Assembly: GCA_964406815.1 (NCBI GenBank)
Contig: CAYOTC010000001.1
Location: forward strand, 70 to 64,069
Reading direction: 5' to 3'
Origin: an uncultured Bdellovibrionales bacterium
Lineage (GTDB): Bacteria > Patescibacteriota > Minisyncoccia > Moranbacterales > UBA2206
DNA: 64,000 bases
Every line of letters begins with the position of its first letter. The first letter of the stretch is position 1. The position numbers and the translations under genes are program-made. The notes beneath the pieces were generated by a model. It was given only the letters and a program-made list of their open reading frames with translations. It searched no databases and was not told the DNA's origin. This document shows positions 1-10,697 of the stretch, piece after piece.

Positions 1-154
1 TGGACTTTATTGTAAAATATATATAGACAGAGATCCTGAATTTAAGATTGTCATGCTGAATAAATTTTCAGCATCTGTTAACACAGATTCTAAAACAAGT
101 TCAGAATGACAGTAAAGAGAATTCAGGATGACATAGAGAAATAAAAATAAAAAA

Positions 155-3100
155 ATGAATCTCAAAAAGAAAACCAAATTAGGTTCCAGGTTTAAATTTT
201 ATAAGGGAAGCAGTTTTAGGGCTGGTTCTTTTTTGTTTTCGAAAAAGATAATTCTTGTATTAGCTTTGTTGATTTTATCGGCAGGGTTTCTTAGTTTTGC
301 TGGAAATGCACAAGCAATGGCTGGCGATTTGGATTTGAGTTTTTCTCCCGGAGTATTAAATGGTGCAAATGATTTGATACAATCCACAAATATCCAATCC
401 GACGGAAAAATATTAATCGGGGGATTTTTTACAACATACAATAATTACTCTATGTATTGCTCGTCTCAATTCTGATGGAACGTTGGATACATCTTTCAAC
501 CCTGGCACTGGAGCAAATAATAGTATATATGCCGTTGCTATCCAATCCGACGGAAAAATATTAATCGGAGGATCTTTTTCCTCATATAACGGCACAATAA
601 TAAATCGCATTGCCCGTCTAAATTCTGATGGTTCGCTTGATACATCTTTTAATCCCGGTATCGGCGCAAGTAGCACTATTTATTCTCTTGCCATCCAATC
701 TGATGGAAAAATATTAATTGGAGGAATTTTTTCCTTGTATAACGGTACGACAAGAAATCACATTGCCCGTCTAAATTCTGATGGATCATTAGATACATCC
801 TTTAACCCCGGCACTGGCTCAAATAGCGATATTAAATCTCTTGCCATCCAATCTGATGGAAAAATATTGATTGGAGGATATTTCACCTCATATAACGGGA
901 CTACAAGAAACTATATTGCCCGTCTAAATTCTGATGGATTATTAGATACGTCTTTTGATCCCGGCACTGGTGCAAGTAGTTTTATTTATTCTTTCTTCAT
1001 CCAATCCGATGGAAAAATAATTACTGGCGGAAACTTTACTTTATATAACGGCACGACAAGAAACCACATTGCCCGTCTAAATTCTGATGGTTCGCTTGAT
1101 ACATCCTTTGATCCAGGTACAGGCGCAAATTATGCCGTAAACTCAATTATCGTCCAATCCGATAAGGTGTTAATTGGAGGAGCCTTTACATCATATAATG
1201 GCACGACAAGAAACCACATTGCCCGTCTAAATTCTGATGGTTTACTTGATACATCCTTTGACCCCGGCACTGGCGCAAGTGGCACAATTAATTCCCTTAT
1301 CATCCAATCTGATAGCAAGCTAATTATAGGTGGGAGTTTCGGCTCATATAGTGGTGCATCTATAAATTGCATTGCTCGTCTTGATTCTGATGGAACACTG
1401 GATACTTCCTTTAATGTTAATAGTACAGGAATAAATAGTTATATAAATTCTGCAGTCATTCAATCCGACGGAAAAATATTGATTGGAGGAGCTTTTACGT
1501 CACATAATGGAATCTCTAGAAACCGCATTGCCCGTCTAAATTCTGATGGTTTACTTGATACATCCTTTGACCCCGGCACTGGCGCAAGTGGCACAATTAA
1601 TTCCCTTATCATCCAATCTGACGGGAAAATACTGATTGGTGGATCATTTTCGAACTATAATGGCATATTTAGAAACAGCATTGCTCGTCTCAATTCCGAT
1701 GGTTCACTGGATACATCTTTCAATCTTGGTACTGGTCCAAATAACTATACTCAGTCGATTGCCATTCAATCGGACGGAAAGATAGTTATTGGAGGAGGTT
1801 TTACGACATATAATGGCACAACCAGAAACTATATTGTTCGCCTAAATTCTGATAGATCATTGGATACATCATTTGATCCTGGTGCAGGAGCAAATAATAG
1901 TGTAACTTCTGTTGCTATACAATCTGACAGTAAAATATTAATCGGAGGAGGTTTTACAACATATAATGGTACAACTATAAATCGCATTGCTCGCCTTAAT
2001 TCCGATGGATCATTGGATACATCTTTTAATGTTGGTACGGGAGCGAGCAGTACTGTTCAATCTATTACCATTCAATCCGACGGAAAAGTACTAATAGGAG
2101 GATCTTTTACGTCATATAACGGCACAACTATAAACCGTATCGCTCGTCTAAATTCTGATGGTTCGCTTGATACATCTTTTAATACTGGTACTGGCACAAA
2201 TGCTTCAATTTATTCCATCAACATTCAATCCGACGGAAAAATATTAATCGGAGGAGGTTTTTCATCATATAACGGAACGGCTAGAAATAACATTGCACGG
2301 ATTAATTCTGATGGATCATTAGATAATGATTTTAACCCCGGAGCAGGAGCAAATAACTATGTGGCTTCTATTGCTCTCCAATCCGACGGAAAAGTGATCG
2401 CTGCAGGAGGTTTCAACAGCTATAACGATATTCCTGTCGCATACATCGCCAGAATCAACAATCCTCCGGTTACCACTCCAACTGTTACAACTAATGCGGT
2501 TTCTTCGATTTCATACACCATCGCCACAGGCAACGGAAATCTGACGTCAACCGGAGACGGTTCCACAACTAGATATATCCAATGGGGAATATCCTCCGGA
2601 ACATATACCTCAAGCTGTAACGCCGGAGCGACAACTTCTACCGGAAACTATTCTTGTTCTATGACTAGTCTTACTGCTGGCACGACATATTATGTCCGAG
2701 CTTATGCTACTAATTCCTCCGGAACCGGATACGGAGACGAAATAAGTTTTTCAACAACCGCCATAGCTGTTCCTACGGTAACTACTAATACTGTTACATC
2801 GATAAATTATACTACGGCTACTGGAGGAGGAAATGTCACGGCAACTAATGGCGCTAATCCGACAATCAGAGGAGTTGAATGGGGCACAGCTACTGGCTCT
2901 TACACTAACTCTTGTAATGCTGGAGCAGGAGGAATCGGAGCCTATACTTGCTCTATGACCAGCCTTACTTCCGGAACAACATATTATGTCAGAGCTTTTG
3001 CTACCAACTCCGCTGGAACCGGTTATGGAACAGAAATTAGCTTCAACACTTTATCTGGTTCTCCAACCGTTACTACTAATTCCACCACCAGCATTACTTC

Positions 3101-4373
3101 CATAGGAGCTACTGGCAATGGAAACATCACTAATACCGGAGGCAATAATCCCGAAAGATTTATCCAATGGGGAACAACTTCAGGAATCTATACCAGTGAA
3201 TGTACCGCCGGAACCGGAGGAACTGGAACGTATTCTTGTGCAATGAACAGTCTTACTCCTGAAACTACTTATTACTATCGAGCTAAAGCAACTAACTCAG
3301 GAGGAACCAGTTATGGAGATGAAAGTTCTTTTACTACTATTCCCGAAGGCATAATTATTCCCGATCCAATCCCTCAAGACATGACTGACGCTTACAATGA
3401 AGGATATATATCTATAGGAACCGGAACTCTTAATAGCACTAACCAAGTAACTACAAATCTTGACCTGACTATCACATCCAATAATGGCCAAGCCACTCTT
3501 CCCGTAAACACCCAAATCACCAACACCGACTCAGGCAACATCGATATGTCTCAATTCTCCATCTCTAACGTAACCACCCAGACCAAATCAACAATCTCCA
3601 CCACCAGAGGCTCAATCGAGATCGGTATCCCCAATACTAACTTAACTTTCTCCCAACCGATAGAAATATCAATAAGTGTAGGAACTCAATACAATGGAGA
3701 TATCCTGACTATCCAATCCCGATCCTACAACCAATCAGATTGGACCGATGAAGGCACCTGCACCGTCACCAACGGAATCTGCAGCTTCACTACCACCCAC
3801 GCCACCACCTATACCGTGAACGGAGACGGAACTATTACCGGAGAGACCAACATCAATACCAATCTCCCCATAGAATCAACCATCTCTCTCAGTTGTCCCG
3901 ATTCATTGGATCTAACCTCTATCACCGGCACCGGACAATCAACAATCGATACAAGCAACGAAGCTACCTGCAACATCGCCACCAACAACTCCAACGGCTA
4001 CAAGCTGGAATGGCAAGCTTCCAGTAATAATATGCAAAATTCCAATTCCGATACTATCAGTTCCTATACCCCAATAACTCCCAATGCTCCCGAACCTTGG
4101 CTCATCGACAATACCGCAAGTGAATGGGGAGCCAGACTAAAGAGCACCTCTACCGATAACGATACATCCACTTGGGGATTAAGTGATGGATATGACGGAA
4201 ACTGGTTAAACATAGATAACTCCACTCCATTTGAAATCATAAGAAGAACAGAAGAAACCGACCAATCCGGATCAGATGAAATCATCCAATTCGGAGCGGA
4301 AGTCGGATCAAACAAATTCCAACCTTCTGGAACTTACACTACTACAGTTACTATGACGGCGACGACGTTGTAA
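155..4373 (+). CDS. Giant secreted repeat protein. N-terminal signal peptide, then about 14 tandem ~51-aa repeats (LDTSFNPGTGA..IQSDGKILIGGSF.SYNGT.RN.IARLNSDGS; delta-60/TIGR02608-like from memory), then 3 FN3-like ~97-aa repeats and a T/S/N-rich C-terminal region. The two track ORFs (155..475 and 483..4373) look like one gene split by a frameshift near 440-482.
   Basis: Track ORFs 155..475 (signal peptide MNLKKKTKLGSRF...AGNAQA) and 483..4373. The first repeat unit is cut short (TYNNYSMYCSSQF*) while the other frame continues IARLNSDGTLDTSFNPG, matching the repeat consensus. Nucleotide periodicity 153 nt (about 330..2460) and ~290 nt x3 (about 2470..3345). Confidence 0.6.
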
Positions 4374-4443
4374 GACATATATCATATATCATGTAGCATG
4401 TAGCAGGAATCGGAGAACAAAAAACATAAAATACAAGATACGA

Positions 4444-4476
4444 AAAACAGTCTGCGGGAAGCGGGCTGTTTTTGTT
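4444..4476. terminator. Weak bidirectional terminator-like hairpin between the convergent giant-protein gene and the relA-like gene (A-run, ACAG...CTGT stem, T-run).
   Basis: aaaaACAGtctgcgggaagcgggCTGTtttt. Short stem, flanked by A and T runs. Confidence 0.3.
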
Positions 4477-4506
4477 AAATTCAACATTTAAAAATACGGA
4501 TAAATC

Positions 4507-9626: not shown

Positions 9627-10697
9627 ATGAATAAGGAAAAGAATGCTAATAATATATCGCCTGCAAAAAAGGCTAAGGAAATTTTCGAATTTTATAACCT
9701 TATAGACAGGATGATTTTGACTTTGCCGGAAAGATCGCGGGATATAATCAAAAAAAGATTCGGAATAGTTGAGGATGGGACTCAACATACGCTTGAAAAA
9801 ATAGGCAAGGATTATAAGATAACGCGGGAAAGAATCCGCCAAATTATTGCTGACGCCATAAAAACGATCTGCAAAAGTGAACATAAGGATGATTTTCACA
9901 AAGCGGAAGATGAAGTGGTTTTTGCAATCGAAAAAAATGGTGGTATAATAAAAGAAATAGATGCGATAAAAAAATTGAATCTGGACGGCCTGAAGGAAGA
10001 AAACGCTATTCGGTTTTTTGTTGCTTGTTCAGAAAGAATAAAAGTTAAATTTGAAAATGGCAGAGTGGAAAAATCTTGGATTTCTGACGAAGCGGTAATG
10101 GATCAGTTTGGTCGAGTTGAGAAGGAAGCAAAACTTATTCTTACGGAGAAAAAAAAGCCGCTTAAGGATGAAGAAATAATCACTCATCTTTCTGAAAAGA
10201 TGCCGGATTTTTCCAAAGAGCATATTATGTCGCATCTGAGCGTTATGTCTCAAGTCAAAAGAAATGTTTTTGGAAAATGGGGACATCATAACTGGATGGA
10301 TATAAGACCGAAAGGTAGCAAAGAAAGAATTCATTTGGTTCTCAAGGAAGAAGGGAAGCCGTTGCATTTTACCGAAATAGCCAAACTTATAGACAAATAT
10401 GGACTTGGTAAGAAAAAATCTCATCCGCAAACGGTTCACAACGAACTTATAAAAGACGATCGGTTTGTTCTTATTGGTCGGGGAATATATGCGCTTAGAG
10501 ATTGGGGATATTACGAAGGCACGATCAAGGATGTTATTAGTAATATTCTCGAAAAAAGCGGACGTCCGATGAGGCGGGAAGAAATAATAGATGAAGTCCT
10601 GAAAATCAGAAAGGTGAAAAAAACTACGATTATGATTAATCTCAACAATCCGAAATTCTTCAAAAAAAACGGTGAATTATACAGCTTGAACAGATAG
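9627..10697 (+). CDS. Sigma-70 region-4-like HTH protein with a C-terminal winged-helix (HARE-HTH-like) domain.
   Basis: N-terminal LEKIGKDYKITRERIRQI resembles a sigma70 region 4 HTH. C-terminal HFTEIAKLI...DDRFVLIGRGIYALRDWG resembles a HARE-type wHTH. Confidence 0.4.
   Translation: MNKEKNANNISPAKKAKEIFEFYNLIDRMILTLPERSRDIIKKRFGIVEDGTQHTLEKIGKDYKITRERIRQIIADAIKTICKSEHKDDFHKAEDEVVFAIEKNGGIIKEIDAIKKLNLDGLKEENAIRFFVACSERIKVKFENGRVEKSWISDEAVMDQFGRVEKEAKLILTEKKKPLKDEEIITHLSEKMPDFSKEHIMSHLSVMSQVKRNVFGKWGHHNWMDIRPKGSKERIHLVLKEEGKPLHFTEIAKLIDKYGLGKKKSHPQTVHNELIKDDRFVLIGRGIYALRDWGYYEGTIKDVISNILEKSGRPMRREEIIDEVLKIRKVKKTTIMINLNNPKFFKKNGELYSLNR

Follow-up and report, generated by a model that had tools for sequence, protein, structure and literature searches.

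A frameshifted gene for a putative modular adhesin with a MAIN-like domain and a proposed terminal anchor in an apparent member of the CPR/Patescibacteria

Introduction

MAIN domains (microbial GAIN), such as that of B. subtilis YfkN, are autoproteolytic domains with HX(S/T) chemistry (Brogan & Rudner, 10.64898/2026.05.12.724683). In that study, the published set was collected by PSI-BLAST from YfkN, the structure-based annotation calls the domain ZU5, DUF5122 and fn3 are among the partner domains named, and CPR/Patescibacteria, the apparent lineage of the DNA described here, are not named in its text or in the parts of its tables covered here (10.64898/2026.05.12.724683). A second type of surface system is known from Firmicutes, where WxL clusters comprise a small WxL protein, a large WxL protein and a WxLIP protein (DUF916-DUF3324-TM) and are defined by at least two WxL genes together with at least one WxLIP gene (PMC9772566, PMC10599100).

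How CPR/Patescibacteria attach to their host cells and are released from them is little understood. A modular adhesin bears on this question, and the gene analysed here appears to encode one, with beta-propellers as its head, FN3 modules as its stalk, a MAIN-like joint that probably cleaves itself and an anchor domain of its own. The gene is located in a 64-kb stretch of DNA (the window), for which a preliminary description had reported a secreted repeat protein disrupted by a frameshift. The last 343 aa, overlooked in that description, comprise a GAIN/MAIN-like domain with an HA|T motif and a conserved terminal domain that is a candidate anchor, and these two domains define what kind of surface protein the adhesin is. 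The protein had also been proposed to be the major surface protein; nothing in the present results bears on abundance.

Results and discussion

Organization of the split gene

The positions of all features are listed in Table 1. ORF A (155..475, forward strand, 106 aa) encodes the signal peptide and blade 0 and ends in ...TYNNYSMYCSSQF*, while ORF B (483..4373, forward strand, 1296 aa) is part of a +1 frame that is free of stops from 417 on, reads IARLNSDGTLDTSF from nt 456 and encodes 13 further delta-60 blades, three FN3 modules and the 343-aa tail. The coordinates previously given for both ORFs, and the sequence given for ORF A with its signal peptide, the start of the first repeat and the stop, were exact. 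Likewise, the repeat consensus was said to carry on in the +1 frame into ORF B, and frame A indeed fits this consensus up to GGFFTTYN (nt 442) and frame B from IARL (nt 456). Frames A and B share a 59-nt overlap, and a +1 shift would be needed to pass from A to B. No stop occurs in ORF B, as compared with 66 and 112 in its two other frames.

Table 1. Positions of the features of the adhesin gene region in the window.
Feature	Position (nt)	Strand	Remarks
Promoter-like hexamer pair, weak	78..107	+	upstream of ORF A
Putative signal peptide	155..316	+	long basic n-region, hydrophobic core IILVLALLILSAGFLSF, AQA|M cleavage-type site; read directly
Blade 0, most divergent unit	317..455	+	frame A through nt 442; partial PF17164 match on ORF A
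Frameshift junction	443..456	+	unique sequence, net 5 nt short (13 vs 18)
Blades 1-13, 50-52 aa each, 153-nt period	456..2444	+	frame B
TGA stop ending frame A	473..475	+	read in sequence
Three FN3-type modules, ~98 aa each	2460..3341	+	two Cys per module
ZU5/GAIN-like (MAIN-like) beta-sandwich domain	3342..3851	+	fold model; no Pfam match
H-A-T codons CAC GCC ACC, putative autoproteolytic HX(S/T) site	3798..3806	+	turn between the domain's last two strands
Linker and terminal ~170-aa all-beta domain, candidate surface anchor	3852..4373	+	pilin-like fold, no Pfam match; stop TAA 4371-4373
Terminator hairpin, 13-bp stem, loop GGGAA, then U-run	4443..4478	+	-18.2 kcal/mol, z -5.1

The data support the reading of ORF A and ORF B as two pieces of one frameshifted gene. 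The frame match at YN/IARL, the colinearity with 17 homologues and the terminator hairpin after ORF B all speak for one gene, and restoring 5 nt at the junction yields a single ORF of 1407 aa. It is extremely improbable that the two ORFs are independent functional genes; a public collection does list ORF B as a protein of 1296 aa, but this ORF begins at a TTG inside a blade and has neither a signal peptide nor a Shine-Dalgarno-like sequence, ORF A also breaks off inside a blade, each of the 17 homologues is one continuous chain, and two 7-bladed propellers cannot close with 13 blades. An alternative genetic code was ruled out: among the 60 long open frames of the window, seven terminate with TGA, and table 11 leaves every long ORF intact.

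The allele as it stands is null because the frameshift parts the signal peptide and blade 0 from all else. The frameshift itself is an ordinary mutation or an assembly error and of annotation interest only: the deposited gene is read as a cytoplasmic-looking protein of 1296 aa whose signal peptide is lost.

Propeller head and FN3 stalk

The delta-60 repeats matched TIGR02608 with 424.5 bits (cut-off 76.5) in 12 stretches and DUF5122 (PF17164) with 619.5 bits (cut-off 27) in 13 stretches, and structure prediction modelled the 14 blades as two closed 7-bladed beta-propellers. For the FN3 modules, a 294-aa segment scored 28.8 bits with PF00041 (cut-off 25) and 38.5 bits with PF16656 (cut-off 30), in three stretches each, which is marginal; with the whole ORF the PF00041 score was 23.8 bits, slightly under the cut-off of 25. 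The TIGR02608 and fn3 HMM search that the preliminary description had suggested thus gave matches above cut-off for both (for fn3 on the 294-aa segment), and its assignment of delta-60 repeats plus three FN3 modules was borne out. The FN3 module type of the window protein is common in FISUMP/TIGR02145 proteins.

The closest relatives of the head are 17 homologues of ~830-950 aa, each with a signal peptide, 14 blades and a C-terminal extension, for which PF18962 is on record in most of them. They share with the window protein the 51-aa consensus IQSDGKIxIGGxFTxYNGTxRNxIARLNxDGSLDxxFNPGTGAN and the count of 14 blades, and identity to 16 of the 17 is 50-59%. The repaired N-terminus is colinear with all 17 from the signal peptide on, and its signal peptide aligns with theirs. 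In contrast to these proteins, the window protein has three FN3 modules, a MAIN-like domain and a CPR-type terminal domain in place of the PF18962-type sorting domain, and its gene is frameshifted in blade 0.

The 153-nt units had been described as almost identical, which they are not: units 1-13 are 56-82% identical to one another at the DNA level, unit 0 is 47-57% identical to them, and the matches over the array amount to 72% (TRF). Exact repeats reach 96 nt in one case (1217-1312 = 1526-1621) and otherwise do not exceed 43 nt. The dN/dS between repeat units is ~0.21.

Frameshift junction

In blade 0, the spacer from YN to IARL is 13 nt long, whereas each of the 13 other units has 18 nt there and the first blades of the 17 aligned homologues all have six residues. 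The resulting net shortfall of 5 nt agrees with the earlier estimate of about 5 nt missing near 445-460. The distance between ACAACATAC and ATTGCTCG is 16 nt here, where an in-frame distance would be 15, 18 or 21 nt. When all possible repairs were scored with a profile, the best repair was the addition of 5 nt at 443-456 (77-81 bits), followed by +2 or -1 nt (73-75 bits); genuine blade junctions had a median of 86.7 bits in the same scoring. The sequence 437-456 (TACAATAATTACTCTATGTA) contains ACAAT once and AAT twice, and YNTIITLC-IARL results when ACAAT is put back behind nt 442. A tandem ACAAT may have lost one of its copies; the exact mutational event is not reconstructable because blade 0 is too divergent.

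No exact repeat of at least 12 nt touches 430-462, no homopolymer or multi-copy short repeat is present at the junction, and TRF reports only the 153/306-nt array. Slippage in the G5/T6 run at 419-430, which is upstream of the conserved YN, was ruled out, as the conserved F..YN would be lost and the blade shortened.

Phase variation is classically found in genes for surface adhesins, and in Neisseria the switching of opa is driven by pentanucleotide repeats. The window gene resembles opa (CTCTT) in that a 5-nt unit sets the frame of a surface-protein gene near the signal-peptide region. In opa, however, the unit is present in many tandem copies, whereas here there is one copy, possibly two before the lesion; high-frequency switching is therefore not expected. 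A functional shift, either by +1 ribosomal frameshifting at the junction or by a phase-variation switch, is very improbable. The 59-nt overlap and the +1 direction would allow it, but on inspection 443-456 contains neither a slippery sequence nor a stop-codon context of the kinds known for +1 shifts, frameshifting at the TGA itself would cost the IARLNS motif and two residues of the blade, slippage in the G5/T6 run would not rebuild a canonical blade, and the site has no repeat tract.

A collapse or mis-joining inside the 153-nt array, with its 14 units and the 96-nt exact duplicate, is more improbable still. The units are 56-82% identical, a loss between units would comprise multiples of 153 nt and keep the frame, and with 14 blades, as in the full-length homologues, the array lacks no unit. 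Moreover, the sequence beyond a shared 30-nt block at 391-420 is unique to unit 0 and does not stem from another unit. Thus, of the origins previously considered, an assembly artefact and a pseudogene both remain live, while phase variation and repeat collapse are unsupported because the site is unique and without homopolymer or short-repeat tract, lies in the most divergent unit, and the units are 56-82% identical.

Real lesion or assembly artefact

The lesion must be very recent or an artefact, because ORF B is open, dN/dS is ~0.2 and the family-invariant residues are kept. We consider the chance slightly better than even that it is a real, very recent mutation in at least part of the sampled population. 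The site is neither repeated nor homopolymeric, and the neighbour genes checked have full-length domain matches. On the other hand, the intact 3.9-kb ORF B fits an intact gene with a consensus error equally well, and streamlined CPR genomes contain few pseudogenes.

A sizeable minority probability is therefore given to a 5-nt deficit that exists in the assembly only, either as a consensus or polishing error or as a chimeric path through strain variants of a variable surface-protein gene, with the gene intact and expressed in the cells. Local assembly errors concentrate in repeat-rich surface genes. Besides the wholly open ORF B, the purifying selection between units and the retention of every invariant residue, it is in favour of an artefact that the source is one metagenome-type contig, that the protein cluster is a singleton and that relatives of the window protein often end at contig ends. 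Against this, the sequence at the break, 20-35 nt past the nearest exact repeat (the 30-mer at 391-420), is unique and not homopolymeric, a 5-nt indel is untypical of sequencing error, and a coding indel between strains would be a genuine frameshift in one strain anyway. In addition, the Pfam domains were full-length in all four neighbours scanned (relA/spoT, topA, dprA and a sigma-like gene), and none of the other same-strand frame overlaps in the window gave evidence of a split gene.

Searches for independent assemblies of the locus gave no match, neither by exact look-ups of ORF A, ORF B, its protein record and relA in a contig index nor with a gapped pattern across the junction against genome and metagenome contigs. 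The protein record of ORF B forms a singleton cluster from one NCBI contig. A pattern for the N-terminal 79 aa gave 600 matches in metagenome contigs with no relatives among them, and the full-length search returned no orthologue with more than 51% identity over 65% of the query. The search with FN3 and tail was dominated by FN3-rich Bacteroidota proteins, PDB sequence searches with three segments of the protein and one profile gave nothing meaningful, and a literature search for 'delta-60 repeat' had zero matches.

MAIN-like domain

The domain that follows the FN3 modules was modelled as a beta-sandwich resembling GAIN-B or ZU5. It belongs to a family of about 500 clusters at 50% identity with the motif C..C.F.T.HA[T/S] at the turn preceding the last strand. 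Among 141 aligned members, H is conserved in 130, A in 138 and T or S in all (125 T, 16 S); F at -4 is present in 140, and the two Cys in about 137. In the model of the window protein, H153-A154-T155 is flanked by strands 146-154 and 156-160, and none of the invariant residues has been lost from the mid or the terminal domain. In alignment A3 of the mid domain, the H-x-(S/T) motif is invariant.

Like MAIN proteins (YfkN) and the GAIN-B and ZU5 domains of eukaryotes, the mid domain has a conserved H-x-(S/T) in the turn that leads into the last strand, and family members use either S or T. Large size and the order of signal peptide, adhesion domains, domain and surface anchor are also common to MAIN proteins and the window protein, in which the anchor is the one proposed below. 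The motif differs, being HA(T/S) with two conserved Cys instead of HFS, and the likeness is one of fold, motif and architecture, with no sequence match to Pfam or, by profile, to PDB sequences; neither ZU5 nor GAIN was among the top Foldseek matches in the PDB. From motif and fold model, the mid domain is probably a self-cleaving release module of GAIN/MAIN type. With it, MAIN domains would gain both a lineage and a family of sequences that lie outside the reach of RefSeq-based searches and Pfam.

Relatives have the order head, mid domain, anchor, with RCC1, Kelch, NHL, HYR or CHB_HEX as heads and PG_binding_1, a TM helix or the terminal domain as anchors. Compared with MAIN proteins, the anchor of the window protein is not a sortase type, not SLH and not a classical wall-binding repeat.

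Terminal domain

We propose the terminal domain as a surface anchor. It is located at the extreme C-terminus in all its carriers and is also found as ~205-aa signal-peptide proteins, which at three independent CPR loci adjoin proteins of ~333 aa that begin with a signal peptide and carry a TM helix at the C-terminus. Of four such ~333-aa proteins scanned, three, from two loci, gave sub-threshold scores with PF06030 (WxLIP_PGBD; 22.1, 14.7 and 12.5 bits vs 27.3), and the partner protein at locus L001 had no PF06030 match. Three terminal-domain genes and two partner genes are present at L004/L005, two and one at L006/L007, and one of each at L001.

Like WxL, the terminal domain occurs both as near-bare small proteins and C-terminally in large head-bearing proteins, and the gene arrangement of WxL clusters is matched by L004/L005 and L006/L007, with PF06030 scores of the partners under the curated cut-off. 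This suggests a CPR analogue of WxL/WxLIP surface complexes. Unlike WxL domains, the terminal domain has no W-x-L motifs and ends in ...TVTMTATTL with no Trp, PF13731 did not match it or its stand-alone relatives at E up to 10, and the 64-kb window contains no WxLIP-like partner gene. Foldseek against the PDB gave weak E-values only, with pilins and GH123/GH30 beta-domains on top. Fold scores with the two-domain fimbrial tip adhesins (FimH, CfaE) and with chaperone-usher or archaeal donor-strand pilins were modest for Ig-like folds, and no usher or chaperone genes were seen near the relatives. The model of the terminal domain is apparently self-complete (pLDDT 97-98), and strand exchange is therefore not indicated.

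Proposed model

Positions 155-4373 would form one transcription unit for a protein of ~1407 aa with, from N to C, a Sec signal peptide, 14 blades, three FN3 modules, a ZU5/GAIN-like 'MAIN-like' domain and the terminal beta domain. The two 7-bladed propellers would act as the binding head and the FN3 modules as the stalk. In the MAIN-like domain, self-cleavage may take place at the A|T bond of the conserved H-A-T, in the turn ahead of the last strand, and both fragments would remain joined non-covalently via their common beta-sheet, so that head and stalk could be shed under force. The terminal domain would hold the protein at the envelope, probably via a WxLIP-like membrane protein whose gene would lie at another place in the genome. 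We give the whole account, that is one gene for a ~1407-aa adhesin with MAIN-like release, a terminal anchor and a real recent loss of 5 nt, an even chance.

A broader proposal is more tentative, and we rate it somewhat below even: the 170-aa mid domain may represent a large un-annotated, apparently CPR-centred family of GAIN/MAIN type, self-cleaving at a Cys-braced HA|T/S, that joins interchangeable propeller heads to interchangeable anchors in apparently episymbiotic bacteria. One of these anchors would be a new pilin-fold domain associated with WxLIP-like proteins, as a CPR counterpart of the Firmicute WxL clusters. If this is true, ultrasmall bacteria would have a force-releasable attachment device.

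Flanking elements and neighbouring genes

No paralogue of any part of the adhesin was found elsewhere in the 64-kb window, the rest of which is filled with dense long open frames. A scan of the region for promoters and terminators performed no better than on shuffles, and promoter-like sites were not commoner than in these. The terminator hairpin separates the adhesin gene from relA/spoT, which is convergent with it. The signal peptide region was modelled as a helix (26-48) with low-pLDDT flanks, and an alternative TTG start of ORF A would yield MFSKKIILV...

Split gene and junction

The window reads as laid out in the preliminary description, with a short ORF (ORF A) carrying the signal peptide and a long one (ORF B, 483..4373) in the +1 frame. 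ORF A terminates with ...TYNNYSMYCSSQF at a TGA (473-475), which is a true stop here: long open frames in the window end in 43 TAA, 10 TAG and 7 TGA codons. Open from 417, the +1 frame continues with IARLNSDGTLDTSF from 456 and closes at TAA 4373. Frame A fits the repeat consensus up to GGFFTTYN (nt 442) and frame B from IARL (nt 456). In blade 0, the first 153-nt repeat unit, a spacer of 13 nt separates YN from IARL, versus 18 nt in 13/13 other units, in agreement with the roughly 5 nt described as missing around 445-460. This spacer comprises 6 residues in the first blade of 17/17 aligned homologues.

All possible repairs were scored with a profile built from 212 genuine blade junctions (median 86.7 bits). 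Insertion of 5 nt anywhere in 443-456 gave 77-81 bits and repair by +2 nt or -1 nt 73-75 bits. If ACAAT is put back after nt 442, a tandem ACAATACAAT, the junction YNTIITLC-IARL and a single 1407-aa ORF result. Loss of one of two pentanucleotide copies by a slipped-strand event would be one parsimonious route to the lesion, which we infer only, because blade 0 is too divergent for reconstruction. In the sequence, a small indel thus breaks a single large adhesin gene in two, which is an ordinary event.

Table. Positions of features in the window and of related gene clusters in CPR contigs.
Feature	Position	Strand	Description
ORF A	155..475	+	106 aa; long basic stretch, hydrophobic core, AQA|M, then first repeat
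Mid domain	3342-3851		ZU5/GAIN-like
Terminal domain	3852-4370	+	conserved C-terminal beta domain
Terminator-type hairpin	4443-4478		-18.2 kcal/mol, z -5.1, U-run; between convergent adhesin and relA/spoT genes
Sigma70_r4 (46 bits) + C-terminal HARE-HTH (61 bits)	9627-10697	+	356 aa; by dprA and topA
LOOT RNA (Rfam RF03000)	49252-49374	+	83.2 bits vs gathering score 46.4; full-length
tRNA-Gln(ttg)	52802-52874	-	beneath 3' end of opposite-strand 514-aa ORF 51345..52889
CPR cluster	L004 5376-9695		terminal-domain genes to partners 3:2 (L004/L005)
CPR cluster	L006 7136-9717		terminal-domain genes to partners 2:1 (L006/L007)
CPR cluster	L001 128-4216		terminal-domain genes to partners 1:1

Repeat array

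The repeat units had been called almost identical and the lesion attributed, among other causes, to repeat collapse or phase variation. DNA identity is just 56-82% among units 1-13 and 47-57% between unit 0 and the others, and Tandem Repeats Finder (TRF) reported 72% matches. Repeat collapse is not supported: deletions between units would come in multiples of 153 nt and leave the reading frame unchanged, and the 14 blades counted equal the number in homologues. Phase variation is not supported; the site has no short repeat tract. No known frameshift motif was seen there on inspection. An exact-repeat search found no repeats of at least 12 nt touching 430-462; the closest shared block is a 30-mer (391-420), beyond which the sequence is unique to unit 0. 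Slippage in the G5/T6 run at 419-430 was excluded because the run lies upstream of the conserved YN.

The sole long exact repeat of the array measures 96 nt (1217-1312 = 1526-1621) and spans the first half each of blade 6 and blade 8, among units otherwise 56-82% identical; it looks like recent gene conversion inside the gene.

Age and reality of the lesion

ORF B contains 0 stops in 1304 codons (66 and 112 in its other two frames), differences between units are mainly synonymous (pN 0.20, pS 0.56, median dN/dS 0.21), all invariant residues of the mid-domain and terminal-domain families are retained, and the adjacent relA/spoT, topA, dprA and sigma-like genes give full-length Pfam matches. It follows that the lesion is very young or else absent from the cells. 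In six more frames located at same-strand overlaps, no sign of a split gene emerged, two of these frames being complete L17 and L13 genes. Source reads were not found, and exact look-ups and junction-pattern scans of genome and metagenome contigs yielded no independent assembly of the gene. That the 5-nt deficit is an artefact and the cells carry no lesion is possible, at somewhat less than even odds. A real lesion, given about an even chance, is the reading leaned towards for two reasons: the site is unique and contains no homopolymer, and a 5-nt difference between strains would leave one of them truly frameshifted.

The tail has its closest relatives (63-64% identity) in two fragments, L002 2-652 and L003 84-857. 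One is truncated where its contig ends, and the other begins 83 nt into a 4.9-kb contig; they show that assemblies often break within genes of this type. The genes downstream of them (RmuC, Glycos_transf_4) share no synteny with the window.

Stalk and mid domain

Scanned as an isolated segment, the three ~98-aa modules pass the cut-offs of FN3-type Pfam models (PF00041, 28.8 vs 25; PF16656, 38.5 vs 30), in line with their earlier designation as FN3-like; their nearest relatives are multi-FN3 FISUMP/TIGR02145 proteins. The designation of the product as the major surface protein was found unsupported.

The last 343 aa gave no Pfam or NCBIfam match and were modelled with high confidence (pLDDT 91.7) as two beta domains with a disordered linker between them. 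An exhaustive HMMER search returned 511 cluster representatives of the mid-domain family, whose most conserved feature in 141 aligned members is C-x7-C-x-F-x-T-x-H-A-[T/S]-x-[F/Y] (H in 130/141, A in 138/141, T (125) or S (16) in 141/141). In the model, H153-A154-T155 (nt 3798-3806) falls exactly at the turn between the last two strands. In relatives, the domain lies 100-210 aa before the C-terminus, preceded by RCC1, Kelch, NHL, HYR or CHB_HEX heads and followed by PG_binding_1, TM helices, CFLWWCW-type tails or the terminal domain.

Fold, chemistry and architecture match the MAIN (microbial GAIN) domains reported in May 2026 from RefSeq, for which cleavage at HF|S was demonstrated, the fragments remaining associated; in those proteins a signal peptide comes first, followed by adhesion or enzyme domains, then MAIN and an anchor (10.64898/2026.05.12.724683). 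That report labels MAIN domains ZU5 by structure-based annotation and lists DUF5122 among the partner domains; Patescibacteria are not named in its text or in the part of its tables covered here (10.64898/2026.05.12.724683). We infer that the mid domain self-cleaves. The added value lies in the architecture, a CPR variant of these newly described surface proteins with an undescribed anchor. The GC content of the window is 36.5%, and tail-cassette relatives with an organism name are all CPR but one, labelled only 'bacterium'; the source is therefore probably a Patescibacteria-type MAG.

The relative P0298 (1169 aa) has FN3, the HAT domain and the terminal domain as in the window (mid-domain identity 58%) and an RCC1-type propeller head wholly unlike that of the window protein; it appears that different heads are exchanged on a shared stalk-joint-anchor module. 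In seven relatives of the mid domain (P0339, P0333, P0349, P0400, P0363, P0322, P0340), a low-complexity linker leads to the C-terminal sequence ...K(K)CFLWWC[WF], in the place of a TM helix or PG-binding domain in others. This ending may serve as a sorting or anchoring signal that has so far escaped recognition.

Terminal domain and WxL-like loci

Among the proteins searched, 56 relatives of the terminal domain were detected; the few with an organism name come from Parcubacteria, Moranbacteria and one unclassified bacterium, and there is one more in a WWE3 genome. The domain lies invariably at the extreme C-terminus and often constitutes an entire ~205-aa secreted protein; its model is closest in structure to donor-strand pilins, e.g. 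CsuA/B, CfaB, CS17 and Fim/Pap subunits.

In three independent loci (L001; L004/L005; L006/L007) terminal-domain genes adjoin genes for mutually homologous proteins of ~290-333 aa, each bearing a signal peptide and, at the C-terminus, a TM helix. For 3/4 partners scanned, matches below the cut-off (E 1.6e-4, 0.032, 0.16) were obtained to PF06030, the domain by which WxL-interacting proteins (WxLIP) bind peptidoglycan. Firmicute WxL clusters combine small and large WxL proteins with a WxLIP (PMC9772566, PMC10599100), and the CPR loci likewise pair terminal-domain genes with partners, most of them WxLIP-like at this sub-threshold level; the L001, L004 and L006 clusters may be their CPR counterpart. 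The terminal domain lacks the W-x-L motifs of the WxL domain and gives no PF13731 match; by analogy it would therefore work like a WxL anchor rather than be one. No WxLIP-like partner gene was found within the 64-kb window. The L006 cluster is flanked by genes for giant proteins of 1417 aa (FG-GAP/Laminin_G) and 1704 aa (F5_F8_type_C).

Other features of the window

The strong hairpin downstream of the adhesin gene was missed by a consensus terminator scan. The LOOT RNA extends into the start of ORF 49352..49954. The overlap at tRNA-Gln(ttg) reflects either an over-extended ORF end or a genuine overlap. Sigma70_r4 and HARE-HTH in one protein are an unusual pairing.
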